Origin: Barthelona sp. PCE
Lineage: Eukaryota
Reading direction: 5' to 3'
Assembly: GCA_040285745.1 (NCBI GenBank)
Contig: JAUFOR010000008.1
Span: forward strand, 1,860,001-1,924,000
Length of the DNA: 64,000 nt
Shown: positions 24,802 through 48,698 of the stretch, in pieces
How positions within the stretch are numbered: position 1 is the first letter of the stretch
How the letters are laid out: every line of letters begins with the position of its first letter
Program-made: the position numbers and the translations under genes
Notes under the pieces: model-generated
What the model was told of the DNA's origin: nothing
The model's input: only the letters and a program-made list of their open reading frames with translations
The model's database searches: none

Positions 24802-25069
24802 GTTCAAACAAGTGATTTTCAAGTAAAAAAGGGTTCAAAAACACAAAGCATAACAAAATTTGTGAAGAAAACGTTCCTTGCAATATACAAGCAGTTTATT
24901 GAACTTAGGTGATTTATCTACTAACGTTATGTTCGCTTTACAAGCTAAATATTTCAAAAATCGTGCAGTCGTTGTTTGCCTGCAGTAAAAATTGTTTACC
25001 CATTTTAACCACAGATGTTCACCAACTTCATGTTGTATGATCTTTATTCACAAGGGCTGGGATACAAAA

Positions 25070-26113: not shown

Positions 26114-26812
26114 ATGTTTAAATTTTTAGCCATTCTGTCTGTTCTTTTAGTGGCTCTTGCCTCGTGTCCTTCTGCTCTCAATGGCCTTAATGCTCTTAGC
26201 GTAGAACACCAGTTTGCTGGACCTAACCCCAAGCGTTTAAGCTTCCAAATCAGTCCCTGTGAGCCTTTAGCCCTTTGCAGTGGCCAAGCCTGTCTTTCTT
26301 TTGGTGTTGGTAGCGCAAGCTTCAATGTTGGTCGTAATCCTACGTACAGCATCACTGGTGATCGTCAAATGACTCAAAAGATGTCTGGTATCTATAAGTG
26401 TTTCGATGGCAGCACTACTCATGCAACTGGTACAAAAATCACATATATTTGTGATTCTTCACAATCTGGTGATGGTGCTCTTGAAATTGCACCTGATTTC
26501 GTCTCTGAGGAATGTCCTGCTTCTCAAACACCAACAATTTACACTTTTACTTGGCGTACAGATAAGGTTTGCGATTTATCTCAAGGATCAAGCTTTGGTA
26601 CCGTATTTTGGGTTTTATTCTTCCTCACTGTCATCTTATATCTTGGAATTGGTATTGCTTTCAAGACTATTGCTCAAGGAGCTCGAGGTATTGAAGCTAT
26701 TCCACAAATCGACATGTGGAGGGAATTACCATCACTTTGTAAGGACGGTATTACCTTCTGGAAGTCTAAGATGTCCAAAGGAAGCAAGACAACATCATAC
26801 GAAACTCTTTAG
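26114..26812 (+). CDS. Cation-dependent M6P receptor / ATG27-like sorting receptor
   Basis: Signal peptide, Cys-containing MRH-like domain (YTFTWRTDKVC), TM, ARGIEAIPQIDMW..LPSLCKDG, terminal YETL sorting motif. Confidence 0.85.
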   Translation: MFKFLAILSVLLVALASCPSALNGLNALSVEHQFAGPNPKRLSFQISPCEPLALCSGQACLSFGVGSASFNVGRNPTYSITGDRQMTQKMSGIYKCFDGSTTHATGTKITYICDSSQSGDGALEIAPDFVSEECPASQTPTIYTFTWRTDKVCDLSQGSSFGTVFWVLFFLTVILYLGIGIAFKTIAQGARGIEAIPQIDMWRELPSLCKDGITFWKSKMSKGSKTTSYETL

Positions 26813-26903
26813 AGCTGAATACGTGTAGTAAATTTTTATCATCACTAAAATACTGAATGTATGCTTAACCTTTTCTACAGCTTTTTTTGGGACTAATTGG
26901 GCT

Positions 26904-27167
26904 ATGACTTCTGTTTTTGACGGGCTTATTTCTCCAGAAGAAGAGCATGATACCAAAATCGAGAAACAAAAAAGAAATAGAATGATTTTGCTTATAACAC
27001 TTCGGAAACGTTACAAAAAGTTTATGGATTTGGTTGATGAGATATATAACCAGCAAAAATACAACGTATCACTGAAAGAAATACTTTTTGAACGTGAGAG
27101 ATACCTTCAATCTTTAACACAACGTATAAGAAGGAAAAGGGGGTTTAGCAGCTTTGATAATATGTAG
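26904..27167 (+). CDS. Small coiled-coil protein (weak resemblance to Eaf6)
   Basis: ATG-initiated 87-aa ORF filling the gap between genes. LKEILFERERYL...RGF is reminiscent of Eaf6 but not diagnostic. Confidence 0.45.
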   Translation: MTSVFDGLISPEEEHDTKIEKQKRNRMILLITLRKRYKKFMDLVDEIYNQQKYNVSLKEILFERERYLQSLTQRIRRKRGFSSFDNM

Positions 27168-27258
27168 TGTGAAGTGCAATCGCCCTTGTAAGATGCGAAT
27201 AATACACTCACTTCAGCTTCCACAATAAACTATCTTGAGAAATCTTTTATTAAGTGGC

Positions 27259-28423
27259 TTAACCGAAAAGATCGAAACCGAAGTCCTCCTCCTCAGACTC
27301 AGACTCAGGCTCGGGCTCTTCCTCTTCCTCCTCAACAACTTCTTCAACGACGGCAGCGACAGCAAACTCATCGGGGTTGTCAAGACGGTGCTTGAGCTCC
27401 TCGGCCTGCTTGAAGATACAGTCGGTCTCGAGAGCGAGAGCGAACATATCACGGGCAGCGTTGATAACCATGTGAGGAACGGAAGCAGCGTTAGGAATAC
27501 CAACACTGATTGAAGCAGCAGCAATCTGATCAAAGACAGTCTGCAACTCCTCGGTGATCTGCTCTTCAGTAAGAGCGAGAACATCGGCGGGATAGATCTC
27601 ACCCTGATCGTAACAGGTAACACACTTCATCTTGATGGTGAAGGGGTTGATGTTAAGTCTCTCAAGGAGGGCACTTTGGGAGACGTTAACCTTCTCACCG
27701 TTAGCAATAGCAAGGTGATCGGCAAGGATGCTAATGGCACCCTTGACAATCTTGGTGGGAATGTGAAGAGCTTGGAAGAAGGAAGTCTGGGTTGGGGGAA
27801 GACCAGTGTTACCAGCAGGGATAATGACATCCTTGTTGGCGTACATACCGGGCTTGGCAGGACAAGGAACAATGTTGGAGTCAATGATCTTGAAAACATC
27901 AACAAGAGCCTCGTTAGTGAAAACGAAGGCAATGTTTTGTCTAAGGTGACCGAGTAAACCTCTCAAAGGATCGGTTTCACCAGCAATCTTCTCAATGGCG
28001 ACACGGGCACGGGACTTCTTGCAGACGTAGAAGACGGCAATCTCACGAAGGGATTGACGGATCTTGGCAATCTGTTTGGCACCGACGGTATCAAGGTTGA
28101 CGACAAGGATACGCTTGTACTCCTTGAAAAGCTTCTCAAGAACGTCAATCTGCTTGTTTTTCCACTCTCTCGTCTTAGTGTTAGAAAAAAATCTGGTAGT
28201 GTGTCAAATATGCAAGACAAACAACTGTTCGACACAAAATACTATCCCATTCCTTCCAAACGCCGCAAACGCGTATTGTGAATGGTGCTGAAGATGTGTA
28301 CAGTGAAACAGTGCTTCAACCAACGTTTAAAACTGCAAAACGATAATTCATCGTTGTGAGCTTTGTTTGGTTTGTTTCATGCGGCTGACCCCTTTAAATT
28401 CATACTTTGCGAGCAACAGGCAT
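27259..28423 (-). CDS. RPLP0: 60S acidic ribosomal protein P0 (uL10); two exons 28423-28406 and 28173-27259
   Basis: IPAGNTGLPPTQTSFFQALHIPTKI and C-terminal EEEDFGFDLFG. The frame extends upstream (TREWKNKQ..DTVGAKQIAKIRQSLR) without an ATG. Splicing gives MPVARK|TREWK. Confidence 0.95.
28174..28405 (-). other. Spliceosomal intron in RPLP0 (232 nt, phase 0)
   Basis: GTATGA...TTCTAAC-ACTAAG. Its removal supplies the otherwise missing start codon in frame. Confidence 0.9.
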
Positions 28424-28843
28424 TAGAATTCGATTTGTATTAAAGTAATAATAACAAAAGAAGTACTTCTACCCAAATCTTTACTTGATCAACTTCACAC
28501 TTTGCCACACGCGCTATCGTTGTGCCGTTGTCAAGATTTGAAGGCAGAATATTTAATATATCGCCTATACCCTTGAATGGAACAAACTTACGCTTTGTGG
28601 TTTAATGATCATTATAATCCTCAAATTGGGAGCTTTATTTGAATAAGATGTTGTTTATCAGCTCATAAATGTAATCGTTATATATATATAATTGTCACAT
28701 TTCATGCAGGTTTCACACAAATCATTATACATGATCTAACACCCAACTCCTAAAGTGAAATTTCACTTTGGCCTGATAAATATGCATTAAAAATCCACAA
28801 AGCAATGCAATATCATTCATTACCTTCTCCACCTTGAGGTCAA

Positions 28844-29788
28844 ATGCCTCAGTTGTTTCAGCTAAGCACATTTACAAGGTTTATAGTATTCCTGCTACAA
28901 CCTGTTGCAGCGAATATGCTCATTAATGCGATTAGCACAGCATTAAGTCACGGTATTCGTTATTCTTTCATAATAGCATTTTCATTCTCTGCATCTTTTA
29001 TCTTCTGGAGCCCTATCATATTCCGCAAATCGATGAAAAGCCACTTAAAACGAATGACCAAACATAAGCAGGTGTATAAGCTCATGATTTTACTTATCTG
29101 GTGTATTCTCCTGCTGCTTCTCGAAATGGTCAACTTCCCTAAGCGTAGCTATTGCTTCGGAGGGATTGCATTAGTCCCTTTTTTTATGCTAATCTTCCGT
29201 AAGATCTTCCGCAAGCATACATTCACAGTAGCAGACTACGTATTCGGACTCCCGTTGAGTCTGTGCGGTGCCGTAGTCAGTTATTCAACAATGGATGTTC
29301 ATACTATTTCCAATTTAGTTTTAGGCCCTTTAATGGCTTGTGCTTTAGTTTTATTTATAGCAATCATCCAAAATTATAAGAGCGAAGTGGACGCTAACTT
29401 TTGGGCCACCTTCTACCTCATGGTTACAATTTACGTCCTACTTGTGTTTGTTATTGTAAGCTTTGCCTCCAGCTTTACTTCAATCCCAACAACATTCAAC
29501 AGCGCAGATACGTTCAGCCAAGAGCGACTAAAGGTTGCATGTTTATGTGGCATATATCTGAGTGCCTTTATTCATTACATGGGATTCCTCTTCACATCAT
29601 CTGATGATTTAGCCTACAGTAGCTTCTTGGCGGTATCTCTTATGTCATGGTACCGAAACTTTGGTCTTACTGTATGGAGCTTCAGCGATACTGTTCGGTT
29701 TTTCGTAATCGCCTTTGTGATGTTCTTGTGGAGTTTTTTCAGATTATTATTCCCCTTTAAGAACCTCAATGCTGCCGATAGCCTGTGA
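28844..29788 (+). CDS. Polytopic membrane protein (possible DMT/EamA-like transporter)
   Basis: About 9-10 hydrophobic segments in 314 aa. Family assignment is tentative. Confidence 0.55.
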   Translation: MPQLFQLSTFTRFIVFLLQPVAANMLINAISTALSHGIRYSFIIAFSFSASFIFWSPIIFRKSMKSHLKRMTKHKQVYKLMILLIWCILLLLLEMVNFPKRSYCFGGIALVPFFMLIFRKIFRKHTFTVADYVFGLPLSLCGAVVSYSTMDVHTISNLVLGPLMACALVLFIAIIQNYKSEVDANFWATFYLMVTIYVLLVFVIVSFASSFTSIPTTFNSADTFSQERLKVACLCGIYLSAFIHYMGFLFTSSDDLAYSSFLAVSLMSWYRNFGLTVWSFSDTVRFFVIAFVMFLWSFFRLLFPFKNLNAADSL

Positions 29789-30454
29789 TATAGTAGTTAA
29801 AACACCCATCATCTCTTTTTTTTCTTTGGTCAGATCGATTACTTTTTGTTCAAGCTTATCGTTCTCCTCTTTGTGTTCAAGAAGTGTGTTCTCGAGAATC
29901 TCGATTGCTGTTTCGTGTTTAGAAATTGTTCTATCTCGTATTCTTAAAGCTTTTTCCAGCATCTGAATTTTTGATACATCAACACTTTTCTCCTCATCCT
30001 GTTCTTTGTCTTTGATGCTCATAATACCTATTTGCACGTCGAAGGAGACACCCTCCACTGTCAATTCAGAGCTTTTTAATTTAAAAAAATCTGTTAATCC
30101 TTTTTCCCTCTCAATGAGATGCATTTTCGATTCGCTGCAATCATAAATAAAATCATGTTCATCACAGATGATGTTCACAACTTCACCGTATCCCATCACC
30201 TTGCTCTCTTCCCCTAAAACATGTGTGAATAAATCGCGTAGATTCATTTCCTTAACATCAATTTTTTCTACCTCGGTTGAAACAATCATATTGGTCAAGA
30301 ACAGAATTTCGTATGACGACGAGAGTTCCTCAACTAAATATGATGGATACCATTCTCTATCATCATTAACCAGAACAACTCCTTCTAAAGGCACTGTGAA
30401 ATCAATTTTATCAAAGTTTGTTCGCAAAAATGTGCTAAAATCCTTGTTTTCCAT
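29747..30454 (-). CDS. Hypothetical protein with C-terminal coiled coil
   Basis: ATG-initiated ORF with heptad-rich C-terminus. Confidence 0.65.
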   Translation of the reverse strand: MENKDFSTFLRTNFDKIDFTVPLEGVVLVNDDREWYPSYLVEELSSSYEILFLTNMIVSTEVEKIDVKEMNLRDLFTHVLGEESKVMGYGEVVNIICDEHDFIYDCSESKMHLIEREKGLTDFFKLKSSELTVEGVSFDVQIGIMSIKDKEQDEEKSVDVSKIQMLEKALRIRDRTISKHETAIEILENTLLEHKEENDKLEQKVIDLTKEKKEMMGVLTTISQAIGSIEVLKGE

Positions 30455-30644
30455 GCTGATTTTCTGCAAAAACGCAGTAGTAGTTGTGAAAGAGGTTACT
30501 AATGTTAAACTGATGTTTGTATCAAAATCTTATCCTGCTTATTCTTATGGACCGTAAAAGGCAACTTTGAAAGTCTGAAAGTGATGAAAATGAAATGTAT
30601 AAAAAACCTGCTTTGGCATTTTTTAGTTCTTTCAACTGTTTGAT

Positions 30645-30974
30645 ATGAGTTTCTTTCACAAAAAGAGGATTTCAGTAGAGTTGAACGTGGTTTCTGAGCT
30701 TCATAATGATAGAAACATTCCACTGGACAATGAGATTTTTCAAAATCACCATCTTCTTCCTGATCCTCCCTCATATGATGACCAAATGGAGGATGATGAT
30801 ACCCCTACGCCCAAATATCTTTGGAAAAAGCAAAGAGACAATTGTGAAAGGATCAAAGCAACGTACAACACTATTCTTAACTGTCTATTTACTTCCAGTA
30901 ATACAAAAAGTTTCGAAGAAACTATACACACCGTGTGGAATACAAAAAAATCTCTACAACTTGAATATAAGTAA
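30645..30974 (+). CDS. Small hypothetical protein
   Basis: 109-aa ATG ORF ending 2 nt from the EXO70 stop. Confidence 0.45.
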   Translation: MSFFHKKRISVELNVVSELHNDRNIPLDNEIFQNHHLLPDPPSYDDQMEDDDTPTPKYLWKKQRDNCERIKATYNTILNCLFTSSNTKSFEETIHTVWNTKKSLQLEYK

Positions 30975-30976
30975 AT

Positions 30977-33397
30977 TTACTTTCGTTGATCAAACATACT
31001 TTCCAATTGGCTGCGAACGAGATTCACTGGGAATTTAACGTCAAACACGGCATCGCCTTCACGTCCTGGCGGAGCGTTATCAACGATACTTGACAGCTTT
31101 TCTGTTACAAAATTCTCATAACTTGAACTGACAGATTTGCTAACAGAAAGACATATAGACTCTCGCAGCTCCTTTGATACGATAACCCCACGGTTACAGT
31201 TTAATAAAAAGGGTAGTTGTGAAGAAAAATCATGCAAATTACTGCGTGCAACTTTCAATGTATCCTTGAACAGTTTAACCCATTGTGAATACCTCTCTTT
31301 TGTTGATTGACTGGGCGAGATCTCGGCTGAAGGACTGCGCATCTGTTTTATGCCAAAAAGCAATGTACTCAACTCCAAATCAGTCATACTCCTCATCAAA
31401 GGACCTATCAACGTTTTAATAAACGCCTCCTTCTGCTTCTTGATTCTCTTCGCCAGCATACTGTCAAAAGATGGGCCAACTATACGTACTAGAGATTTTA
31501 AATTATCTCTCACATAACTCAGATTATTCAAAACGTAAACCTCCTGTAGTGCAAGTGAGTTGGGGACGTTCTGATACTCCTCGCTCTGTGTCTCAAGGTG
31601 CTTTAGAAGCCTCTCAACGAGCATCTCATGGATCAACCAAGCAAAGGGTGTGCGCTCAAGCGTAGGATCATAACTGGGTTCAACACTCACGTTCTCCTCC
31701 TGCTTTGCTGCCTCTTCAACCGCCTCGCTCTCGTTCTGAAATTGCTGGAACTGTTGCTGAATATTCTTCATATCAAGCTTCAAGCTCAATCTAACAGATA
31801 TACGACTATTTGCTACGTTGGAAGTATTGTTAACACTGGACACGTTCCTGTTATCATTCAGTGCTGCCACATTCGGCGGCGCAGGCAAATTTGATGGAAC
31901 AGTTAAGGGTCTTTTTTTGGGAAAATTGCTTGTGTATTTATCCAGGTTCGAAATACAGTCTGGAAATAATTTGAGAAGAACTCCATCAATGATCTTACGG
32001 TAATCCTTGCGAATGATAACGAGGAACTTGAGCACGTCAGTTGTTAATTGGTGCACTGTTGCATTGACAGGAAGGTGCTGACTAAATTGTGTCGTGAACA
32101 TTGTGTTAAAAAGATGTTGGAAACATGTAAACGAATGTTGGCTAAGGGTATTAACGATCATCTTAACGTCATGGTCCATAGTGGAACTGATGGCACTCAA
32201 ATTATTTAGCACATTCTGCAGTTGAAACATGCACTGCTCAAAGTCCAAACACTGAAAGATATTCTTCATCATCGATAGGTGATCCCGGCTTACAGTTTTA
32301 TAAGCCTTGCTCATCTGATTGAGAACAGCCTTGAGATGGTCACTATACACAATACTCAAATGTTCGTTAATAAACTTCGACACATTAGAACCCAAGTCGT
32401 TTGGACTAATATTCCTGAAAAGGTTATGGAAAAGTAAACGCTCACCCTCATATAACATAATGACACCTTTGAAAAAACAAAGAAGAGAACTGGAATTACG
32501 TTTATGAAACTTACTTACACTCATTATCCTGGATACCTTTTGCTGTCGTTGAACATCTAACTCATATGTATTCATTAGTTTGTCGAACGTCTCATTGAAA
32601 CTATCAATACGAGCGTCGATAAACTCAGTGAACCATGATTTTTGTTTAGGATTATAGTAAATATCTGTGTTAATATTGTTTAATAACGGTTTGAGTGAGA
32701 AAAATAATTGAAAATTACGTCCTAGTCTTTGTTGTATACGATCACTAACTAGAGTAATGGGAAAAGCATTTATATCTCGATCTCTATTACTGATTATATC
32801 ATAAGTGTTATGTCTTACTGTGAGTACGGTGAACATCAATAAATAATAAAAACTACTCCAAATATTATCAACGATCGAAAAAAACTTAATCTGAATGTTA
32901 CGGTTAAACGGTCTGGATAATTGTCGATTTCTCATGAACTTATTCAGCTTTAGATAGTGTTCCACCTTCGAGATTAAAGAGTCAATGGACGTGCCTGATA
33001 TCTCGATTTGTGGGATGCGAATGCCATAGTTACGGTCGTTTAAATCTAAGAACGGAGAAGAACGAGTAAAATAATCAATTAACTCCAAAGCCTCGGTGAA
33101 CGATTGTTCGTGGTGCTCAATGTGCTTCAAAAGGTCCCTGTGCCTGTCGTTCTGGACAGATACATTGTCAAAACTACGCTTCAGAGAACTAAGATGTGAT
33201 TTGATGTTAATAATCTTCTCTTGATATGTATTAAGATGTTCGAGGACTGTACGTGAGCTCTCTTGCAATTTTTTGATGCCTAGTTCCGTCTCATGTGTTC
33301 TGGCAAAAAAAACTGTAATATGCTCGTTGAATGAGGTACCATGGGCCCGTTGTAAAGCAATGTAGTCATCGATAATCTGCGGTTTATCAATCTGCAT
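30977..33397 (-). CDS. EXO70: Exocyst subunit Exo70-like
   Basis: LPVNATVHQLTTDVLKFL (cf. PxDGTVHELT), ALQEVYVLNNLSYV, ELRESICLSV..YENF, terminal VKFP..LESMF. Confidence 0.85.
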   Translation of the reverse strand: MQIDKPQIIDDYIALQRAHGTSFNEHITVFFARTHETELGIKKLQESSRTVLEHLNTYQEKIINIKSHLSSLKRSFDNVSVQNDRHRDLLKHIEHHEQSFTEALELIDYFTRSSPFLDLNDRNYGIRIPQIEISGTSIDSLISKVEHYLKLNKFMRNRQLSRPFNRNIQIKFFSIVDNIWSSFYYLLMFTVLTVRHNTYDIISNRDRDINAFPITLVSDRIQQRLGRNFQLFFSLKPLLNNINTDIYYNPKQKSWFTEFIDARIDSFNETFDKLMNTYELDVQRQQKVSRIMSVSKFHKRNSSSLLCFFKGVIMLYEGERLLFHNLFRNISPNDLGSNVSKFINEHLSIVYSDHLKAVLNQMSKAYKTVSRDHLSMMKNIFQCLDFEQCMFQLQNVLNNLSAISSTMDHDVKMIVNTLSQHSFTCFQHLFNTMFTTQFSQHLPVNATVHQLTTDVLKFLVIIRKDYRKIIDGVLLKLFPDCISNLDKYTSNFPKKRPLTVPSNLPAPPNVAALNDNRNVSSVNNTSNVANSRISVRLSLKLDMKNIQQQFQQFQNESEAVEEAAKQEENVSVEPSYDPTLERTPFAWLIHEMLVERLLKHLETQSEEYQNVPNSLALQEVYVLNNLSYVRDNLKSLVRIVGPSFDSMLAKRIKKQKEAFIKTLIGPLMRSMTDLELSTLLFGIKQMRSPSAEISPSQSTKERYSQWVKLFKDTLKVARSNLHDFSSQLPFLLNCNRGVIVSKELRESICLSVSKSVSSSYENFVTEKLSSIVDNAPPGREGDAVFDVKFPVNLVRSQLESMFDQRK

Positions 33398-33672
33398 GCA
33401 AAAAAAGTGAAGTTACTTCAGATCTGTTTGAGAAAGTGAAGAAAAATGAAAACACTCTAACAGAACAGATAAAGTATGTCTTACCTCCAAAACATCGGAT
33501 TTCCTCCAAAAAAAGCCAATCAAAAGATAATAGAACAGGGTAAAAAGAAAACTGCAACCGATCCTCAAGATCCCAGATTGATGAACAATTAGAGAATGGA
33601 ACACGAAGCAGGGTTGAATTTGCTTAGTTCACTTATATCAAGGTTTCCTATTTTCTTTTGTATATTTTATAC

Positions 33673-33750
33673 CTATTTATTAGTATCGAGGGTCGGATTT
33701 GTGGACTTCCGCACACCAACCTCGGTGGTGACCCCTTCGTGGCACCATAC
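33673..33750 (-). other. Probable 78-nt GC-rich structured spliceosomal intron in an unannotated transcript
   Basis: GTATGG...TACTAAT-AAATAG matches the consensus and spacing of the other introns. Two internal hairpins. Host exons are not defined. Confidence 0.5.
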
Positions 33751-33933
33751 CCAAACTTAGATCTCTGTAAATCATCAAAGTTTCAGGCTTTACTACCGCT
33801 GCATATAAGGGAAGGAACTATGGTGAATCAAGGCATAAATCTTTTGTGTTCAACGCCAATACAACTATATCTACTCATCAAACTTGGTGTAAATCGACAA
33901 TAAAGAGCTATGACAACCTTGCTTTTCCATTCT

Positions 33934-34189
33934 ATTGACACAATAACACTGGTAGGAGGTTGTAAATTTACTTCGGAGTTAGACACTTGTACGGGAGTTG
34001 CGAGCTCCCTCGAGTGCTGTGCTTGCACTGAGAATTGTTCTAGAGCCCCCTTTTTTTTAAAAAAAAGGGGAGAAAGAAATGATGTAAGTACTCACAGAGT
34101 ACAAGAGGGAAGACCGCGTGTCTACTCCTCAGTAGATTTACTCCTACGAAATAGCGTGTTATTCACAAGCGTGCCAGAATCATGTCAAT
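33934..34189 (+). ncRNA. Unidentified highly structured RNA element (multi-branched foldback)
   Basis: At least six nested helices plus hairpins. Imperfect pairs are G-U on the + strand. No family motif recognised. Confidence 0.55.
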
Positions 34190-34392
34190 CTTTTTTTTAA
34201 GCTTTGAATAATCTAAATAAAAAGTTATTTCCGGCTGCATAATAGCCTTACAGACGTCATTCAAGTTGTTCAACCTGTCAACCAATAACTAAGCTTGTTT
34301 TCTCGTTTCCAAGTCTCTTTACGACCTGTTGACGTTTTTTTTCCACTTCAGCAAAACGTAAATAGCTCATAGTTATTTCTACACCATAATTT

Positions 34393-37300
34393 ATGGGTGC
34401 TTGCTTCAGTAGACCACTTGAATCACGAATTTCGAGTTTTTTATCTTCAGAAGATGTTCAGACTCGCTTACCGAGGCTCAGTTCGTTTCTAGTTCGAAAT
34501 ATTGATATCATACCGGCATTTCTACAGCAATTTACTCGGCAATTTTGTGATGTGGCCAATGATAGGAATTACAGTTCAGTTTTCAATGGTATTTGCTTAA
34601 TATCGACAGTAGCAGAGGAATTCTGCAAAGAATATGACGACAATGTTGTTGTTGCTCTCAATTTGTGTATATGTCGAGTTATTTCTTCATATTTCCAGGT
34701 GCTTCAGCTTGAATTGGCAGTCATGGAAAACACAATTCCTCCAAACCTTATCCGCTGCCAGAACGCAATGGTATCCCTGTTGAATAACGTTACGCGTTTA
34801 TCAACTTTCGAGTCGATCATAGACACTGTTCATGATGACCTTTGTATATTTCTTTCCATACCAGTCAAGTTTTCAAGCCAGTTGCAGCTCCCCAACATCT
34901 TATCAGTCACCAACAAGATTGTTGTTCGCCTCGCTAAGCATAATGTGATGGGACTTGCCTTCCGTCTGATTGAGGAGCTGTATGTTCGGGCGATTTTCTT
35001 CCGTAAGACGGATTTCAGATTCATTCGGCAAAATTTGTTGAAAGTGATAACAGCACTTCACATCGAGAAAAGCATGGCTATGTTAGAAGAGTATTATGAT
35101 ATTGTCATGCGTGGATTGGTCGACACCATTCAGTTGTCGGTACCACATGACTTCTCCTCCTTGTCGAAATTATTTGGAACTACAAATTTTCTGTTCAAGG
35201 ATAACCACCTCTTTGAATTATACAAGACGATGAACCCCAGTTACCCGGTGTTGGAGTTCTTGCTTCCACCTATTTTAACGGACTCTAATATGTTCTTTTG
35301 TCTCGTGTGTGAGAAGTCAGAACAATTTTTGAATTTTGCAGTTCGCTATCTCAACAATCCTGAGCTAGAGATGGACAACAAGCTGGAGTATTGTAAGGGA
35401 CGAATTTCGCAACTACTGCACGTAATGCATATGTTTTTGTTTGTCATTTTTCAATTTGGTAAGAATAACCATTTCCGTGATTTGTTTAAGGAGGTGATCC
35501 GTTGCGATAAGCTTAAGAAAAGAGCGCTAGAAAACATGGATGAGGATGACGTTAACTTCCCCAAAACACATGAAGGTATTGCTGAAATGTTTCAGCTAAA
35601 CTATATTTGGATCATCAAAATTTTCCTCAGTATTTTCGCTAATTTACATCGTTTTATCATGTGCATCCATAGTTTGGGACAGAAACGCAAGTTTGTGTTG
35701 CTCAAAAACTTTAGCTACTATTTCTTTTCGTTTATTGTTGTCATGTTTGCCAATACAAATTACGTTAGTTTTCTAGGCAAACAAATACTGCTTATGTATA
35801 GAAAAGAGAGGGATCCTAAGTTATTGTCAATCATTGAAGACATTCCATGTATTTTGTTCATTAGAGATTTTGAGTTCAACGAAGTTTTATTACCTCTAAT
35901 AGCTAACTATGGACCAAAAGATGTTAACCTTATCTTTTTCATATACTCTTTTCTTGGCACATCACTCAAAGAAATTCCTTTTGAAAACCTAATGGAAAAT
36001 TTACATGCTTTTGATGATGGAGGATTTTATTCACAATTTTTTGAAAATTGTCCTCATTTTAATGTCCCAGGTTTGCTGTTTCGCTTTTGTTTCAGTACAC
36101 ATGGTCAAATTTCATTACTTCATTATCTTTCCAACTCATTAAACATTGATAAGTACGGGTCATTCACTTCACGTTTGATAAAGTATGATATTATCTACCT
36201 TCGTAATGTACGAGATTTTCTTTTCGTCAGTACTGAAATCCCATTATCAGTAATGCGAAAGATGAGCGTCGAATTCGGAGATATACTTGATCAGATCCTT
36301 AAAGACTTACTAAACGAATTACCTACTCGTATCACCATCAGTAACTATGCACACTCAATATATGCCATATGCTCTTTGTTTTCCTTTTTATATATGTTGC
36401 AGACCACACCCAACAGTAAGGTTTTAAAGCAATACATATTTGATACCAAACCCTATTACAGGACCATCGCATTGTCTATGTTTTTTGACTGTTGCGTATC
36501 GACTCCTGCTCAGATGCTCCCCAACCTTCCTTCTGTTATCAGTAATGGACTAATCAGATACAATTTAGACCGATATGATCCTCTCTGGGTTGAGCTCTTC
36601 TTCCAGAAGCCCCTAGCCAACACCCATCAGGTTTCAATATTGGCAAAAGAAAATAATCTTAGTTCAACGCAATTAAAAGCTTTTTTTAAAAAAATTCGTT
36701 CAGAGTACATGAACCAGGAATTCAGACATCATATTGATGGTGATCTCCTCGAGGTGCGTGCGTACATCAAGTCTCAGGAGTTCTCACGAAGGATGAACCA
36801 GAAGAGCTGCAAAAAAGAAGTTTTAATCAGAGAGCTTAATGTTGTATTCCCAACATTACGCTATGATAGGCAGATTAAACCCAACACCCGCCTCGTGAAT
36901 GTCCCAGTGCGCACTGAGAACGTTGTACCGAATAATATCAACGAAAACTGGAAACTAGAGCTATCGACTAAGTTCTTGTTCCTTGGACATAACAGTGACT
37001 TAGACATATGGAGCTCGGACGACGATGCGTCTATGGGATATTTTACTCCAGATATGTTAGATCATTTCAATCTTAAAAATTCACAAAAAAAAATCCTCCA
37101 TTTCATTAGAAACAATGTAACTGAGCGCCGACTGATACAAGAAGCGCATATGTACCACCTGCATGTTGAGCAGGAGCGTCTACAAAGTGTTTCACCGGAA
37201 GAAATTCGGCGCCAGATCGATGAATTATTTGTAATGAGCATTGAATCAATGAATATTGATACGCTGGACGATGATATATTCACTGAAACTTCCGAGAGAG

Positions 37301-37473
37301 AGACAACAAATGGTCCTTCATCCGGAATTTCTTCACTATCTCGTTTATCCTCAAATACAGGTTCAGAAGCATCGTCGTACTGGTTCCTAGGGTTCAAAAA
37401 CAACGTTCAACAGCTGGTTGGTGTCATGGATGTTGTAGGATTCACCTCAATTGTCGAAGAAGAATCCTGTTAG
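34393..37473 (+). CDS. EFR3-like armadillo-repeat protein
   Basis: MGACFSRP lipidation-type N-terminus followed by ..RLPRLSSFLVRNIDIIPAF, resembling the EFR3 N-terminus. Long helical ORF. Confidence 0.5.
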   Translation: MGACFSRPLESRISSFLSSEDVQTRLPRLSSFLVRNIDIIPAFLQQFTRQFCDVANDRNYSSVFNGICLISTVAEEFCKEYDDNVVVALNLCICRVISSYFQVLQLELAVMENTIPPNLIRCQNAMVSLLNNVTRLSTFESIIDTVHDDLCIFLSIPVKFSSQLQLPNILSVTNKIVVRLAKHNVMGLAFRLIEELYVRAIFFRKTDFRFIRQNLLKVITALHIEKSMAMLEEYYDIVMRGLVDTIQLSVPHDFSSLSKLFGTTNFLFKDNHLFELYKTMNPSYPVLEFLLPPILTDSNMFFCLVCEKSEQFLNFAVRYLNNPELEMDNKLEYCKGRISQLLHVMHMFLFVIFQFGKNNHFRDLFKEVIRCDKLKKRALENMDEDDVNFPKTHEGIAEMFQLNYIWIIKIFLSIFANLHRFIMCIHSLGQKRKFVLLKNFSYYFFSFIVVMFANTNYVSFLGKQILLMYRKERDPKLLSIIEDIPCILFIRDFEFNEVLLPLIANYGPKDVNLIFFIYSFLGTSLKEIPFENLMENLHAFDDGGFYSQFFENCPHFNVPGLLFRFCFSTHGQISLLHYLSNSLNIDKYGSFTSRLIKYDIIYLRNVRDFLFVSTEIPLSVMRKMSVEFGDILDQILKDLLNELPTRITISNYAHSIYAICSLFSFLYMLQTTPNSKVLKQYIFDTKPYYRTIALSMFFDCCVSTPAQMLPNLPSVISNGLIRYNLDRYDPLWVELFFQKPLANTHQVSILAKENNLSSTQLKAFFKKIRSEYMNQEFRHHIDGDLLEVRAYIKSQEFSRRMNQKSCKKEVLIRELNVVFPTLRYDRQIKPNTRLVNVPVRTENVVPNNINENWKLELSTKFLFLGHNSDLDIWSSDDDASMGYFTPDMLDHFNLKNSQKKILHFIRNNVTERRLIQEAHMYHLHVEQERLQSVSPEEIRRQIDELFVMSIESMNIDTLDDDIFTETSERETTNGPSSGISSLSRLSSNTGSEASSYWFLGFKNNVQQLVGVMDVVGFTSIVEEESC

Positions 37474-37508: not shown

Positions 37509-40265
37509 TTACTCTCTTGTAAATTGTTTTAAGTGTGCAAAGGTTCGCTTTTGAAGGCCTGGAGGCGCTTGTCTTGATGGCTGCACCTGCTGTACTAATG
37601 GAGCTGTCTGTCTTTGTGAATCGTTTCTTCTTGGCATTTCATTTCTTCTAGGTGCATCATTTCTTCTAGGTGGATCATTTCTTCTTGGCACTTCAATAGG
37701 TGTGAGCGGAGACGGTAGATCCACTGTGCGTGGGTAACATGTTGAGAAAACATCAAGATACTGACGAGAAAAATCATACAGCGTCATGAAAAGGTTTGGG
37801 TAAAGCAGCGACCAAAATCTGAAATGATACTCATCTTCTGGCAGTACCTTCTCCTCCATCTCCTCGTAAAACTCCTCCTTGTGTGCGTTCTTGTTGCGAA
37901 TCAGCCGCACCAGGTCACGAACAAGGCAGAAGTCGTAGCGAACATTTGAATTTTCACAGATTTTTCCAATTAGCTTAGGAATCGGTTCCGACCAGTTAAG
38001 AGTGCTTGCACGCTTTGACTTGTTTCTCATGATGATTCCCTGTGTTCTGCTGTAGTATTCAAGACTATTAAGCAGATTGAAATCCTCATTTCGTCGCATG
38101 TTCATAAGAATATCCGAAAATTGGGTGATAAAATTCATACATTGAGCGTATGACCAAAAAAGAGGGTGGTTACGAGCAAATGTAAGGTCACTCCTGAGAT
38201 TCGGCTTGGGGTGAGTTAAGTTAAACACAAGGTGGACCGCCATCTGACCTTTTCCGCTCTCCTGATAAAACTTGCTTGTGAGGAGAGAGTTGAACTGTCG
38301 CTCGTTATTCAAGATACGACTTTGACGGCGGGATATCGCGGTTCCATACAAGTGATCACCGCCAGTAAGCATGTAATACACTAATAAACCGAAGGAGTAC
38401 ACATCGACCTTGTAGTTCAGGGCAACGCTCTTATCGAGTTCTCCGGCCTGGCTCAGCAGGATCTCACGTGCGCGCCATCCCTGTGAGCCAACGCTGTTTG
38501 TCTCAAACGAATCTTCCTCTAAGCACTTTGCGACGCCCATGTCGCTCAGTTTGGCAATGCTCCCTCCATCAAAAAGTAGTATGTTCTGCGGCTTAATATC
38601 ACGGTGAACTATATGCAGCTGGTGGAGGAAGTGGAGGCCTCTCATAATGTGCTGGATCCATTGGAGCACCTGACTCATGCTGATGATTGACTTCCGATGT
38701 ATGAATATTGAAGAAATGGGTGCACCTGCCCTGTTGAAGAGGCTGCGCTCGTCCCTGAGCACCAATATCTCATCTGGTGAGGCTGTGCTACTCGCAACAA
38801 GTTCCAAACGCTGTTCAACGCTCATAAGACCAAGATCAGGCAGCAAATTATCGAGTGAGTGATTTGCGCGCTCGAGAACAAGGTATATCAGACCCTCGCG
38901 CTCGCGGTGTCCAAAATATCGCACAATATTAGGATGTTCGTCCGCTTTGATAAGGATATTCGTCTCCTCATCATTGAATGTATGTGAGCTCATACGCTTG
39001 ATGGCTACCTCACGCTCTCCCATCTTGCCGCCAAAAACGACTGTACCAAGAGAGCCAACTCCAATCTTGTCCTTGAGGTCGAGTGTAAAGAATCCAAAAT
39101 CTTTGGTATCTGCATCAAGAACGACGGCAGGTTTTGATTGTGGGAGCAAGTTTCGCAATGAGTTCGCCTTTGCGATGATCTTGTTCATCGATACCATCGT
39201 CGATAAAGCAACAACGACGATGCTGATAATTAGACCAAGAACAACAGCGACAATAATATGCATGGTCCACGAAGGTCCGCTGCTCGGTTTGAAGGGCTCT
39301 GTTGGCTTGAAGGGCTCTGTGGGATGGTTGGGTTTGTTTGTATCTCCCGAGAGAACTACAGAAAATATATTGGGGTCAACTAGTTTCAACGTCTCGCCTG
39401 CAAAACCAGATTCTGGGGCTGGGGCGAGTACACGGCTACCGTCTTCGGCCCGAATCACCTGCAACATGGCGTAGTTGTCCTCGTCGTAGCAGAGATCGAC
39501 CATACTGACCGTCGGTCCTTGCAATACTGAGTTGACATTGGAGAAGTATATACTGGCGACTGGAAGCGATTTAAAGTCCACCTTCCACACTGGCTTGCCG
39601 AAAACACTGAGCAGGGCCATAGACCCGTTGTTGTAAATTCTTAAATTCCGCACGGCGTTTGAGTATGTATTTGTGTTGATACCAGGTGACGAAATGTGAA
39701 AAAGCTCTGAAGCCCAGTTGGGGGCGGCAGAAGCTGTTTCCCAAGCCTCAACTGTGATCTCTGAAATGGTGAGGAGCATCGCGCTTGATGAGATTGCATT
39801 TTCTGGAGTAAGGTTGAGTAGGGTTTCTTCAACACGCCCAGTAAGCATATCCAGAATGAGGAACCCGTCTCTTTTGCGTGATGTTATGACAATGCCCTCC
39901 TCAGGTATTGAAATCGGAGTTTGGGTAGACATCTGCCATACGTCAGAACTCATGGCGTATACGCTATCTGAGTTGTACTTGAGGTACATAGTACCGTCTA
40001 CGCCTGCATATACTTGATCAGAAACATCGTAACTAGAGGCTGTGGAATTTTTGAGTCGTGTACTCCATACATAACGACCTGTGCCTGCTTCAAGCCCGTA
40101 TAGTGTGCCGTCAAGCGTGAGAACAATGAGCATTGGCCCAGAAAGACGACCTGGAACGAGAGTTCCAGAATCTGTGTCAATTGAATGACACTGTGCAGTT
40201 TGTGCAAACATAAGCACCACGCAACACAATAATGACACAAGAAAGATGTGCGAATACTTGTTCAT
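37509..40265 (-). CDS. IRE1: IRE1 serine/threonine kinase/endoribonuclease
   Basis: Signal peptide, luminal TLDGTLYGLEAGTGRYVW, TM, kinase GVGSLGTVVF/VAIKR/DEHPNIVRYF/HRDIKPQNILL/LSDMG, KEN domain HPLFWS..VRDLVRLIRNKNAH. Confidence 0.95.
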   Translation of the reverse strand: MNKYSHIFLVSLLCCVVLMFAQTAQCHSIDTDSGTLVPGRLSGPMLIVLTLDGTLYGLEAGTGRYVWSTRLKNSTASSYDVSDQVYAGVDGTMYLKYNSDSVYAMSSDVWQMSTQTPISIPEEGIVITSRKRDGFLILDMLTGRVEETLLNLTPENAISSSAMLLTISEITVEAWETASAAPNWASELFHISSPGINTNTYSNAVRNLRIYNNGSMALLSVFGKPVWKVDFKSLPVASIYFSNVNSVLQGPTVSMVDLCYDEDNYAMLQVIRAEDGSRVLAPAPESGFAGETLKLVDPNIFSVVLSGDTNKPNHPTEPFKPTEPFKPSSGPSWTMHIIVAVVLGLIISIVVVALSTMVSMNKIIAKANSLRNLLPQSKPAVVLDADTKDFGFFTLDLKDKIGVGSLGTVVFGGKMGEREVAIKRMSSHTFNDEETNILIKADEHPNIVRYFGHREREGLIYLVLERANHSLDNLLPDLGLMSVEQRLELVASSTASPDEILVLRDERSLFNRAGAPISSIFIHRKSIISMSQVLQWIQHIMRGLHFLHQLHIVHRDIKPQNILLFDGGSIAKLSDMGVAKCLEEDSFETNSVGSQGWRAREILLSQAGELDKSVALNYKVDVYSFGLLVYYMLTGGDHLYGTAISRRQSRILNNERQFNSLLTSKFYQESGKGQMAVHLVFNLTHPKPNLRSDLTFARNHPLFWSYAQCMNFITQFSDILMNMRRNEDFNLLNSLEYYSRTQGIIMRNKSKRASTLNWSEPIPKLIGKICENSNVRYDFCLVRDLVRLIRNKNAHKEEFYEEMEEKVLPEDEYHFRFWSLLYPNLFMTLYDFSRQYLDVFSTCYPRTVDLPSPLTPIEVPRRNDPPRRNDAPRRNEMPRRNDSQRQTAPLVQQVQPSRQAPPGLQKRTFAHLKQFTRE
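37620..37691 (-). repeat. Four imperfect 18-bp coding repeats (PRRN[D/E]x) in the IRE1 C-terminal tail
   Basis: PRRNDP PRRNDA PRRNEM PRRNDS. Confidence 0.85.
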
Positions 40266-40495: not shown

Positions 40496-41434
40496 ATGTC
40501 TAAACATAGAGATCGCGTTTCTTTAGTATGTTCTAGTTTTCTTTGCTTCTTCTTCCTTGTTCTCCTCTTTCTAGAGATTGTGGCCATTGTTTCCACGTTC
40601 CTTCCCTTTGCATATCATGGAATTCCGGCCGAAAATTGGTTTACAGTTGAAGCTCTTGAAAAGCCAATTCTGAAGGCCGATGTTGAAGTTATCGTATCAT
40701 ACTTTGGGTTCCAAGCGCATCTATTCACTGCGAAGCATGCGGCAGCTATTCTATCATACAGAAAAGTTTATCCATCATCTTCAGTAATTCTGGTAACACC
40801 CAGCATCATTTCGTATGATTTTGATGGTATTGATGTGTTTAGAGAGAACAATATCACTGTTTACTATATGGGGATACCATATATGCAGTCAAAGACCAGT
40901 CATGAGAAATTAAAAAGAATGCAGTATATGTCACCTCTACAAAAAGCTTTGCTCACAATGGATGTACTCCACCAATGTGATCCGACAACGTGCATCTATG
41001 TTCACAGCGATATTGTACTGCAGGACAGAGTTCCATCTTCGCAATTCATTGCACAGCATCCAGAATCAAAATCATGCGCTCTCCGCATTAATAAGTCTTA
41101 TGCGAAGCGTCTTGTAGCTCTTAGCTCGGATGACGACGTGCTGGAGAGAATGAGCGTTCTATATGCACTGAAACAGGAAGAATTGTTCATTGCAAATGAT
41201 GTGTTTTTTCCACTTGCGCTTAAAGACATCAAAAACTACTTTTATGTGACGGATATCGGTGGGAGGGCGTTCTTAGACAATGTGTTTGCAAACCTTCTGA
41301 TGAGACAAACCGTTGGTATCTCTTTTTATGCTTTCAAATCAAAAGAGTGTAGTCCAATGGAAGGATCTGTCTTTAGCAGTGTTTTAAAAGCGACTGGTAT
41401 ACCAATGGGATCCGGTAACGGTTGCAAAACATAA
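40496..41434 (+). CDS. Type II membrane protein, possible glycosyltransferase
   Basis: N-terminal TM anchor, CIYVHSDIVL (DxD-like position). Family not certain. Confidence 0.5.
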   Translation: MSKHRDRVSLVCSSFLCFFFLVLLFLEIVAIVSTFLPFAYHGIPAENWFTVEALEKPILKADVEVIVSYFGFQAHLFTAKHAAAILSYRKVYPSSSVILVTPSIISYDFDGIDVFRENNITVYYMGIPYMQSKTSHEKLKRMQYMSPLQKALLTMDVLHQCDPTTCIYVHSDIVLQDRVPSSQFIAQHPESKSCALRINKSYAKRLVALSSDDDVLERMSVLYALKQEELFIANDVFFPLALKDIKNYFYVTDIGGRAFLDNVFANLLMRQTVGISFYAFKSKECSPMEGSVFSSVLKATGIPMGSGNGCKT

Positions 41435-41700
41435 CCCTCAAGATAGTATGGAAAGCATGTTATTTCGATAAATGAAGTTGTTCAATATATAAATATATTC
41501 AATATATCACCATTGAAAGGTTCTTTATTTATAAAGTAAAAAGATGATGACTAAAAAAATTTCTATTGCCACTTTTAAAGTACGCTTACATGTTGTGGGG
41601 TTTATGTGATATTTAATATATTCCTGAGAGCGGAATAGAGCGTGCATCAATTCAGAAAAGCGTTTCATTTTTCATCCCCTTATCAAGGCAGTATAACAAT

Positions 41701-42811
41701 ATGAGCCACATTGAGGATCAGATTGCTACTCTTCAGCACACCTTAGACGTACGTAACACATCTAAATACTCTCACATTGGAAGAATTTTTTCTACACTAT
41801 CCAGCACTATTTAATGATTTTCTTTAACAGAGGAGGATGTGTAATTGTTGTAGAAATAGAACAATTTTAAACATCATACTAGCACCTAGTAATTCTGCGA
41901 TTATCTTATTCAATATACTTGGATAGCATTTGCATCACGGAGATTTCTCTGAAATCACCATCGAAAAGCATTTTTGTTGAGTGATGACTCACAGTTTTGA
42001 AATATTTAAGGAGGTTCTTCACATTAGAAAATGAGGGTATTTTTACATGTTTTACACTAATATTTAGCAACATATTTCGAGTGGAAGCTACTTGAAGGCA
42101 CAGAAATGCAAGGATCAGATCTTAGTGCTGCAAAAGCAGCTTGAGCAGTTCGAGATCAGCTCCATGAATCATGAACATGATCAAGCACTAACCCATCTCA
42201 AGGACGAGCAGGCTCTGCGCTTCCGAGAGTTTCAACGCAAATGGAAGCAAATATTTGCATCTATTCAGGATGATGCTGAAGAGCATCGTGCCCAATTAAT
42301 TGCTAAGCATGAAAATGAACGTCAGTGCGTTTTAGAAGCTTTTGAATTTGAATCACAGAACAAGACTGTTAAGTTCTCTTCTGAACTTATTAATTATCGT
42401 CGTGTTGAAGGTGTTTTAGCTAAACAAGAAAAGTTTGCTGAGGCAGCTGAAATCAAGAAGAAAGCTGATGATTTACAGGCTCTTGAAGAAGAGAGGTATC
42501 TCATTAACAGAGAGAATGCCTTGAAGAATCGCATGAAACATCTAATTAAGAGACAGAAGGTTGAATACTCTGCTCTCGATCAAAGATTGTTTAAAAAGCG
42601 TCAAGAAAGAGAAAAGACTCGTTTAGTTGAGCTCAATCAATTGAAACTACAAATCTCTAATGAAAAACATCAATTGAGACAGAAGCAGAGCCTAGAAATT
42701 ACTGCTCAAAAGAGAGCTAAATCACCTCAACGTGTTGGTTCACCTAACTCATCCAGACGCAGAAGCCCAGGTAGAAACACTCGTTCTCCCTATGCCACAC
42801 CTAAGAAGTAG
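41701..42811 (+). CDS. Coiled-coil protein; two exons 41701-41748 and 42068-42811
   Basis: The track ORF starts at TTG. Upstream exon MSHIEDQIATLQHTLD joins in phase 0 to QHISSGSYLKAQKC. KFSSELINYRRVE..LAKQEKFAEA. Confidence 0.85.
41749..42067 (+). other. Spliceosomal intron (319 nt, phase 0)
   Basis: GTACGT...CACTAAT-ATTTAG. In-frame join. Terminal stem 41764-41774/42032-42042. Confidence 0.85.
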
Positions 42812-42947
42812 TGTATAATTTGTATGGTTTACCTAATAAATCAATGTATTTTCTCATCTTTTTACTGGAGTTAAAGATCCAACGCAAGGGAGGACGCCCT
42901 GTGAATCATATACCGCAGTTGCAAGTGCGTATTATTCTGATCATAGT

Positions 42948-43136
42948 CTAGGAATTTTTCAGAGCTTCAATAATGGCTTGCTCTCTATCTTCATCAAGAA
43001 TGTCGCGCCATTCTGACTGATACTGCTCAAATGCATCAGGGTTAAGCTGAGACACGTCCCATGAGCTCTGAAATTCATTAAACTCATCATCATCGTGTAG
43101 AAGGCCCTTAATAAGATCTGATGGTGTTGATGTCAT
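42948..43136 (-). CDS. SEM1: DSS1/Sem1 (proteasome lid and BRCA2 partner)
   Basis: 62 aa acidic protein with GLLHDDDEFNEF..W (cf. GLLEEDDEFEEF...W) and a C-terminal helix. Confidence 0.75.
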   Translation of the reverse strand: MTSTPSDLIKGLLHDDDEFNEFQSSWDVSQLNPDAFEQYQSEWRDILDEDREQAIIEALKNS

Positions 43137-43270
43137 ACGATTAATGGCTTCTTTTAAAGATACAAATACTGTAAGTTGGTTGAAAAAGTGAAACAAGAAA
43201 AATTTGAAAACTCACTCCTTTATTGTTTTTAATGTATTCATAAACCTTCAACACCCGAATAAGATCCACA

Positions 43271-45061
43271 CTAATAGTTGACAACCATGACTTCGCATTC
43301 TGTAAGAAATTCTTGCATTTCAATCTTTTGACAATCAATATCAAAAGCAGTACATTCATCGTTCAATACCAGGGTGTGAGTAATGAAACTGAATTCATCC
43401 CAATTTAATTCAGCTGCAACTAAAACATTTGGTCTTGGTGAAAAAACTATTAATCCAGCGGCATAAAACAGTTCAGGGACATCTAAACATCTTATCTTCC
43501 TGTGTTCTTCAAAAACACAAATACAATGTGAGAAACAAACACTTTTTCCAATAAAAAAATTATTATGGTCAACAAATCCACCTGAATATTCAAAAATATC
43601 GTTCTCTACTTCATAACGCAAGATAGTGCAACCATTGATCAGAATTTCATCGGAATAAAATGGATTACACCTTATGGAAATTACATCTTGATGATACTCA
43701 AACACTCTTCTTAACATAACAATACCAACCGAATCACAAGCTAACATTGTTATCACCTTACCACTGTGCAACCAAAGAACATTGGCACAAATCTGAAAAT
43801 GCTTCTGTCTTTCAATATCACCAACATGCTTGCCATTGACAATCACTTTGAACTTATCATGAATTTTTTGGGTATAGACAATCAGATTCCTGTTGAAACG
43901 CGGAAGACCACACCGACATTCATTAATGGTTGTTGGAGATTCTCCAATCAAGAGGTCATCGATAAACAAATGATAACTGCTCCTTACTTTAACAAAAATG
44001 CTCTTGTGCCACTGATTGTCATCAAAAAACAACCTAGTCTGGAGATATCTGTCATCATCGGGTGCTTGTCTAAAGATAGTAATAACGTTATGGTAGAAAT
44101 CCCATTCTTCATACTTTCTCAAACACAAATCAGAAGTTTGATACTCATTATATGGTGAAACCTTAGTGAATGCCATAATTCCATGCGTATTATACTTGAC
44201 AACCGGATAAAAAATCGTGTCATCACCTTCTTCTTCACAAACAAAAATTTTGTTATCAAGCATTTTGAAATCCCACACTTCACAATACACTTTCCCATCA
44301 TAGTACCTGGGTTTTGGAACAACATACCCTTCATATCTAATGAAACATCTGCATCCTGACGGAATATCATAAGTCAATTCTATTCTTCTACTGAAAGTTT
44401 CTGAAAATCCAAAACATCCTTCATCATCTTTCATGACAAAACGATTGTTTCCAGGAGTTCTATCGAGTGCATGGTAATCCATATAAATGGTTGAATGGTC
44501 ATCAATAAACAAAGGTGCATCAGTCGAAAAATCTAATATGCATCCAATCTTTCTAATCTTAAAATTTATCCAATACGCGATTCCATCTTGAACTAAAATA
44601 TCGTTTTCTGTTTTTAATAAGGGTGATGTATAAGGGAAAGATTCCTTACTAATCAGATCTATTAAAACAATCGTTCTATTATCATTCCATCTTATCCACC
44701 ATTGCGAATTTAATAATTCACCATGTATTGTTATCTCCAACTCCTCAACATTATAATGCCCAACAGTTTCAAAAATGTTATCATTAAATCTGAACATTTC
44801 AATAAAAAAAATTTCTTCTTCATTAAATGCATATCTGTAAAATAAGGTTGAATCAAGCTTTGTGTTCAAAAATGATGAAGTTTTCTGTTTGAATAGCTCC
44901 AAAATGTTCATGAAAGGCGCTTTTATACCTTGATCCCTGATTGGTGAAATGCAACATATATCAAAAAAATTTAACTCATCATTGTTACTTTGAAGAATCA
45001 ACTGGTCCCCAAAGCGAGAACAAGAAAACTTTTCTCCACTTCTAACAATAGCCCTTGGCAT
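43271..45061 (-). CDS. Hypothetical beta-strand-rich protein
   Basis: 596-aa ATG ORF, AT-rich, with many aromatic/Cys residues. No family recognised. Confidence 0.65.
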   Translation of the reverse strand: MPRAIVRSGEKFSCSRFGDQLILQSNNDELNFFDICCISPIRDQGIKAPFMNILELFKQKTSSFLNTKLDSTLFYRYAFNEEEIFFIEMFRFNDNIFETVGHYNVEELEITIHGELLNSQWWIRWNDNRTIVLIDLISKESFPYTSPLLKTENDILVQDGIAYWINFKIRKIGCILDFSTDAPLFIDDHSTIYMDYHALDRTPGNNRFVMKDDEGCFGFSETFSRRIELTYDIPSGCRCFIRYEGYVVPKPRYYDGKVYCEVWDFKMLDNKIFVCEEEGDDTIFYPVVKYNTHGIMAFTKVSPYNEYQTSDLCLRKYEEWDFYHNVITIFRQAPDDDRYLQTRLFFDDNQWHKSIFVKVRSSYHLFIDDLLIGESPTTINECRCGLPRFNRNLIVYTQKIHDKFKVIVNGKHVGDIERQKHFQICANVLWLHSGKVITMLACDSVGIVMLRRVFEYHQDVISIRCNPFYSDEILINGCTILRYEVENDIFEYSGGFVDHNNFFIGKSVCFSHCICVFEEHRKIRCLDVPELFYAAGLIVFSPRPNVLVAAELNWDEFSFITHTLVLNDECTAFDIDCQKIEMQEFLTECEVMVVNY

Positions 45062-48508: not shown

Positions 48509-48698
48509 GTATGACCGTGTCAAAGATTGGACTGTGTCACATAGCACCAAATAGGTAGCTGTGTGGCGTTACAGAAAGGAAGATTTTCTTTTTTTTCCAT
48601 ACTTTGATGTCCTATGATTTCTATTTTTGTTCTGTGGTTGCTTTTGCCCATGGTATATAGAAATATAGGTCTTATAAGCTGACCTTGCTTACATTTAG
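48509..48698 (+). other. Probable 5'-UTR spliceosomal intron of the CTL gene (190 nt)
   Basis: GTATGA...TGCTTAC-ATTTAG ending 3 nt before ATG 48702. Extensive internal hairpins. Confidence 0.7.

Follow-up and report, generated by a model that had tools for sequence, protein, structure and literature searches.

The window, by which we mean the whole 64,000-nucleotide stretch of Barthelona sp. PCE DNA analysed here, is gene-dense, intron-poor and 40% G+C, and among the eight divergent spacers found in it with a spacer table built on 29 long ORFs, the longest (995 bp; the other seven are 85-593 bp) holds a foldback. The genes flanking this spacer are divergently transcribed, and the features that matter for the argument are the following.

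30977-33397, - strand: EXO70 homologue of 806 amino acids (Pfam Exo70_C, 5.4e-13), the left neighbour, transcribed away from the foldback
33664-33671, - strand: TATAAAAT, the sole TATAWA of the spacer, with the EXO70 ATG 274 nt downstream of it
33910-34200, + strand: open reading frame of 96 codons over the foldback, judged non-coding
33934-34189, no strand: the foldback in full, an imperfect inverted repeat 256 bp long, whose sharp ends read ATTGACA ... TGTCAAT
33934-34058, no strand: left arm, 125 nt
34047-34070, no strand: perfect, spacer-less C4T8A8G4 palindrome at the symmetry centre
34059-34189, no strand: right arm, 131 nt
34191-34198, + strand: T8 run, two bases past the terminal helix
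34216-34221, + strand: AATAAA hexamer, 27 nt past the foldback
34393-37473, + strand: gene for a 1026-aa protein of no recognised family, the right neighbour, transcribed away from the foldback

A first-pass annotation, made from the sequence without database searches, had called the two neighbours EXO70 and EFR3-like. The first name is borne out by the Exo70_C match, and the second finds no support in Pfam (E<=10), among PDB sequences (E<=1) or in the ESM Atlas: against Pfam the 1026-aa protein gives nothing at E<=0.01 and two chance-level rows at E<=10, and its sequence is present in the ESM Atlas with no usable neighbour. The next gene after it encodes an IRE1-type kinase/RNase. On the other side of the spacer, TATAAAAT is probably the EXO70 promoter, and it lies outside the foldback. 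There is also a possible short intron in the EXO70 5'-UTR (GTAAGAC near 33484 ... TCTCAAACAG near 33424, - strand), which together with the TATAAAAT at 33671 suggests a transcription unit for EXO70 that extends as far as about 33640. Between this unit and the foldback lies a G+C-rich patch (33685-33750; 50% in a 100-nt window versus about 35% around it) with a predicted local hairpin, UCGAGGGUCGG...CCUCGGUGGUGA. The surrounding 274 nt, 33660-33933, are not significantly structured (z -1.03), so that the structure of the foldback does not extend leftward.

The geometry of the foldback is that of an inverted repeat built around a point. All ten helices listed in the first-pass annotation, which we reconstructed by script from their coordinates, are present, with 73 pairs, of which 70 are Watson-Crick, 3 are G-U and none is a non-pair, and the structure that they make has an energy of -70.8 kcal/mol on the + strand. 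The central palindrome proved perfect on re-checking; its midpoint (34058.5) lies close to that of the outermost helix (34061.5), and an additional, fifth C adjoins it at 34046. At the ends, ATTGACA/TGTCAAT and AATAACAC/GTGTTATT form perfect terminal inverted repeats of 7 + 8 bp, a hallmark of MITEs and foldback transposons, and pairing does not go on past 33934 and 34189.

How stable is it, and on which strand? Folded freely, the + strand of 33934-34189 reaches a minimum free energy (MFE) of -86.5 kcal/mol, as against -61.6 +/- 4.6 for 200 dinucleotide shuffles (z -5.44), and none of the 200 shuffles is as good on either strand. In a fold scan of the 64 kb (260-nt windows, step 130, + strand only, n=491) the foldback stands out most strongly once GC content is corrected for, at z -3.5, followed by a window within a coding region at z -2.8. 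The first-pass annotation had proposed a multi-branched structured RNA and named the folding z-score as a way to check it; the score is indeed far better than that of shuffled sequence, yet this holds for both strands, the - strand reaching -87.8 kcal/mol (z -7.14), and also with DNA energy parameters (z -5.44). The multi-branched shape did not survive: the best fold is essentially a single bulged rod with a tiny side hairpin, and the three-way alternative, made of TTGTAC/GTACAA plus the hairpin at 33993-34009, falls short of it by about 16 kcal/mol. When the foldback is folded within 401 nt of sequence, its core is kept, and the two outermost helices give way to other pairings.

The symmetry between strands extends to the individual pairs. 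The MFE structures of the two strands have 56 pairs in common, all of them Watson-Crick, with another 33 found only on the + strand and 30 only on the - strand. Of the 89 pairs on +, 4 are G-U, and of the 86 on -, 7 are, so neither strand is favoured. The first-pass annotation had noted G-U on the + strand wherever a pair is imperfect and had seen in this a suggestion of selection at the RNA level. As a description of its chosen helices the observation stands (3 of 3), and on + their structure has an energy 10.8 kcal/mol lower than that of its mirror on -; as a signal of strand it does not, since the - strand, folded freely, reaches -87.8 kcal/mol and has 7 G-U pairs. The G-U count of those helices is moreover biased, because they were delimited by pairing on the + strand, and by our own arithmetic 3 versus 0 corresponds to a two-sided p of about 0.25, which is not significant. 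The strand-specific stability or G-U asymmetry that would mark a generic structured ncRNA is thus not seen here (-86.5 versus -87.8 kcal/mol; 4 versus 7).

Where, then, does the stability come from? Taken alone, neither the left arm (z -0.71 on +, -0.12 on -) nor the right arm (z -0.92 on +, -0.51 on -) folds better than shuffled sequence. Because each arm alone is unstructured, the stability is wholly that of arm-to-arm complementarity, and no part of the foldback qualifies as a local RNA motif. The equal folding of both strands, the rod shape and the unstructured arms together undercut the idea of RNA-level selection, and the stability of the foldback as an RNA is most likely a by-product of the complementarity of its arms and not evidence of a selected RNA fold. 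A more general caution follows from this locus: an excellent z-score obtained from an inverted repeat is uninformative on RNA function unless it comes with strand bias or covariation.

The arms themselves carry a record of divergence. Aligned globally, the left arm and the reverse-complemented right arm agree at 85 positions and differ at 17, with about 10 gap runs, which amounts to 83% identity over aligned columns with nearly the whole arm length aligned. The first 7 and the last 12 nt are identical between the arms; again by our own arithmetic, 12 matching positions in a row at the centre would come about with a probability of roughly 0.83^12, or about 0.1, at 83% identity, so that a faultless centre can be reconciled with uniform decay. 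Indels reach about 20 nt, and the pattern is unusually indel-rich, with perfect blocks of 6-12 bp set between unrelated stretches. Read from the alignment, TTGTAC comes before a common GCG..TCCCTC block in one arm and after it in the other, which produces two mutually exclusive inner pairings; to judge from the order of these blocks, the arrangement looks like rearranged homologous DNA more than a designed junction. The arm pattern speaks partly for neutral decay of an inverted duplication. Perfect blocks and indels would also be expected from selection for pairing, and to that extent they count against reading the foldback as a decayed duplication of DNA.

Searches for relatives of the foldback returned nothing beyond chance. 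Rfam 15 (SRP, RNase P/MRP, snRNA, snoRNA, ribozymes and riboswitches among its families) at gathering thresholds gave 0 matches over the whole 64 kb, and at E<=10 over 33000-35200 it gave six rows, all at chance level and none relevant. The best of them, and the only one overlapping the foldback, is hveRNA (E 5.4; 19.5 bits, where the gathering score is 90). ARAGORN found no tRNA or tmRNA in the window. Within the 64 kb, a small sample of the genome, the foldback is present in a single copy: blastn with word size 7 found no further one, and an nhmmer profile (--max) built from a MAFFT alignment of the two arms recovered the arms themselves and then three rows at E>2. A candidate relative at 48368-48541 with TGACACA-type ends was rejected, as it folds no better than shuffles (z +0.35). 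Pattern scans of the termini and of the inner block pair gave 0 matches in a prokaryote-only genome collection, and a distant-mode search of phage records, a collection free of eukaryotes, gave no match; neither result carries much weight for a eukaryotic element. A scan of the spacer with bacterial-type promoter and terminator models, which are uninformative for a eukaryote, yielded 2 promoter-like sites versus 2.3 expected and 0 terminators.

The reading that we favour, with a probability of roughly 0.55, is that the foldback is a solitary, decayed inverted duplication of DNA-level origin, whose RNA-like stability is a by-product. Among the three options offered by the first-pass annotation, a novel or very divergent ncRNA, an atypical intron and a foldback element, it is the last that fits best. 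The duplication would have its origin in DNA events, in a mobile element of foldback or MITE type or else in replication template switching or fold-back priming, and substitutions and indels would have accumulated in the arms afterwards. Either strand, if transcribed, would give an imperfect hairpin of about 90 pairs, which would be a natural substrate for RNase III or Dicer where such enzymes exist.

Both proposed origins have partial likenesses among known systems. With foldback elements and palindromic MITEs the foldback shares its length of 256 bp, complementarity that runs along the whole arm to a central point, sharp terminal inverted repeats, an intergenic position near gene starts and the lack of coding capacity. 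However, the target-site duplication expected of a MITE or foldback transposon was not seen by eye: the flanks, ..CCATTCT and CTTTTTTTT.., share at most CT, a 2-bp agreement with a chance of 1 in 16, and show no TA, TTAA, 3-bp or 8-9-bp duplication. To our knowledge the termini resemble no transposon superfamily. The single copy in the 64 kb examined, though the sample is small, likewise counts against a mobile-element family, for which recurrence would be expected. As for the second origin, the template-switch events reported so far span from a few bp to tens of bp, whereas a 125-nt arm would need one large event or many rounds. The likeness lies in the adjacent reverse-complement copy, the promoter-proximal spacer, the perfect pairing blocks and the spacer-less centre, and PMC8794818 and PMC13100816 describe template switching as creating, enlarging and homogenising inverted repeats, yeast promoters included. 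Three further points stand against a DNA-level foldback, namely the T8 and AATAAA that follow it on the + strand only, the + bias of 10.8 kcal/mol in the first-pass structure, and the spacer itself, which at 400-900 bp longer than the other seven leaves room for a separate transcription unit.

A decayed foldback would be an ordinary by-product of genome evolution. Inverted duplications are also the raw material of hairpin-RNA and miRNA genes, and if this one is transcribed it would be a clean case of the birth of a hairpin gene, a single locus caught young in the compact genome of a lineage that stands isolated, as well as an indicator of whether RNA interference operates there.

The alternative that survives best, although we consider it unlikely, is that the + strand carries a gene for a lineage-specific hairpin RNA of about 300 nt (an hpRNA or long pre-miRNA-like transcript) or another structured ncRNA. 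Its transcription by Pol II would start within 33800-33930 and end near the T8 and AATAAA (34191-34221), and the product would either be processed by RNase III into small RNAs or serve as a rod-like scaffold. The stable hairpin precursor that characterises miRNA, milRNA and hpRNA loci is present, and its stability is exceptional (z -5.44; the top of 491 windows). The sharp helix ends at 33934 and 34189, the unrelated loops that separate the perfect blocks, the G-U nature of all three imperfect pairs in the first-pass helices and a spacer long enough for an extra unit all point the same way, as do the T8 and AATAAA after the foldback on + only. The - strand past the foldback has no matching T run and no AATAAA equivalent; the + strand AATAAA, from its sequence, may act as a weak signal, and AATAAA or ATTAAA is common after stops in this window.

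Against such a gene stand the free folding without strand preference, the arms that are unstructured alone, and the G-U count that is biased by helix choice and, at 3 versus 0, has a p of about 0.25. The spacer has no + strand TATAWA, and the single + strand candidate is a weak CATATAAGG near 33802; because a TATAWA lies within 300 nt upstream of the ATG in just 10 of 27 genes, its lack on the + strand is weak evidence either way. A Pol III version of the gene is excluded, since a Pol III transcript across the foldback should contain no internal run of at least four T: the T8 at 34051-34058 on the + strand and its mirror on the - strand, the complement of the A8 at 34059-34066, interrupt it in either direction, and here the objection raised in the first-pass annotation is upheld. 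No Dicer, Argonaute, PAZ or Piwi was found by Pfam among the 36 window ORFs scanned, although 64 kb says little on this point.

The comparison with known structured RNAs is similarly divided. Young miRNA genes reportedly originate by inverted duplication, and with hairpin-RNA loci in general (plant and animal hpRNA, young miRNA genes, fungal mi/milRNA) the foldback shares a long imperfect hairpin, derivation from an inverted duplication, an intergenic position and the lack of an Rfam match. Unlike them, its arms match no gene of the window, so that there is no evident target. Well-supported fungal mi/milRNA loci are described in PMC9757828 as having short hairpins, nearer to animal than to plant ones, as against 256 nt here. 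Among rod-like RNAs (SRP RNA; 6S, Y and vault RNAs), the pairing of the 5' and 3' ends in a long rod is a common trait, and the alternative fold of the first-pass annotation follows the order of the SRP S-domain, helix 5, hairpin, hairpin, helix 5. However, no SRP family appears at E<=10, no GNRA tetraloop or helix 8 motif is seen by eye, and the apical helix of the foldback is the U8/A8 palindrome. A hairpin-RNA gene, if real, would define an RNA family new to Rfam and unrelated to any listed there, in a eukaryote that is compact and poor in introns and whose proteins have only distant database relatives.

A quite improbable alternative is that the foldback is a cis-acting DNA element serving both divergent genes, with the T8A8 core keeping nucleosomes away and the mirrored blocks forming paired factor sites or a cruciform. 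Poly(dT)/poly(dA) tracts exclude nucleosomes, and the known promoter inverted repeats of this kind measure tens of bp, as against 256 bp here. The position between divergently transcribed genes, the poly(dT)/poly(dA) core and a fold that is significant at the DNA level would all suit this reading. However, the centre of the foldback is 661 bp away from the EXO70 ATG but 335 bp away from that of the right neighbour, a separate TATAAAAT at 33671, clear of the foldback, is available to EXO70, and nothing similar occurs in the other seven divergent spacers of the window. A precedent comes from yeast, where inverted-repeat expansion is described in PMC13100816 as frequent at promoters and as having changed the expression of GRE2.

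We give still less credence to a reading in which the arms are two diverged small RNA genes of about 125-130 nt lying tail to tail, each running from ATTGACA to CCCC+T8, so that the central palindrome would be two abutting Pol III-type terminators. A T8 run is known to terminate Pol III strongly, and each arm, read on its own strand, finishes with one; the arms are also identical over 7 nt at the start and 12 nt at the end. About 30 nt upstream of the arm starts the sequence is A/T-rich, with ACAATAAAGAG at 33897-33907 (+) and TTTATTTAG at about 34214-34222 (-), but these two stretches are unlike each other. Neither arm beats its shuffles in folding, indels between the arms run to about 20 nt, Rfam gives no match, no A/B, C/D or H/ACA boxes are recognised by eye, and the window holds no third copy.

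Two readings fare worse than the inverted duplication and its RNA and DNA rivals. That the 96-codon, cysteine-rich ORF at 33910-34200 (+) is a small protein gene, hardly credible even though the frame spans the foldback exactly and has an AATAAA 16 nt past its stop like many real genes of the window, is contradicted by codon usage (a per-codon log-likelihood of -0.028 versus 0.21 +/- 0.10 in 167 real 96-codon chunks, a score as low being found in 0.6% of those chunks and one as high in 4.9% of 835 non-coding-frame chunks) and by the absence of homologues (no Pfam family at E<=0.01; 0 matches among 1.84 billion representatives; no word-sharing protein, itself included, in a 5.8-billion set, so that no protein had been predicted from it there, while the set does include another protein of the window), and long spurious antisense ORFs, such as one of 361 aa at 23827-24912, are common here. 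The atypical intron offered in the first-pass annotation fails as well, because a regular expression requiring a 5' GTAWGW, a TTCTAAC-type branch point and a nearby AG finds no candidate intron starting at the GTAAGT at 34085, with no branch point and AG after it; the same expression finds no candidate intron beginning inside the spacer on either strand, and it recovers the P0 intron at 28405-28174.

This last intron belongs to a gene for ribosomal protein P0, whose ORF at 27259-27846 (-) is missing the N-terminus, with the frame open upstream to about 28173. An intron of 232 nt, likely spliced from GTATGA at 28405 to a TTCTAACACTAAG ending at 28174, would place a short first exon with its ATG near 28423. 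Its signals, GTATGA ... TTCTAAC ... AAG, have a yeast-like look, and it is the one well-supported intron of the window. The P0 fragment matches fungal, plant and animal P0 in the PDB nearly equally, from 153 to 133 bits, the top entries being, as we take them, fungal. Elsewhere in the window the closest relatives of the IRE1 and choline-transporter-like proteins are at <=31% identity.

Several features of the window bear on how its genes are to be recognised. At 23821-24912 two ORFs overlap almost fully, one of 326 aa (-) with an RRM domain and one of 361 aa (+) with no Pfam family, and other antisense ORFs of >150 aa lie at 533-1024, 15126-15629, 39001-39474 and 55200-55730; with so many antisense ORFs, open frames alone are poor evidence of genes in this window. 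In a raw count, AATAAA or ATTAAA occurs in the 160 nt after the stop of many of the 31 listed ORFs. Several convergent gene pairs overlap or nearly abut, with spacers of -9, -4, 0 and 35 bp, and their 3' UTRs must accordingly be very short or overlap. Other gaps of 1.2-2.0 kb separate some of the 29 long ORFs, at 26812-28844, 29788-30977, 41434-43271 and 53119-54335, and two of them hold ORFs outside the spacer table, namely the P0 ORF with its intron and an ORF at 42164-42811. A further candidate intron, GTAAGTA ... CACTAACGTTTTGTAG, lies at 53070-53363 on the + strand.
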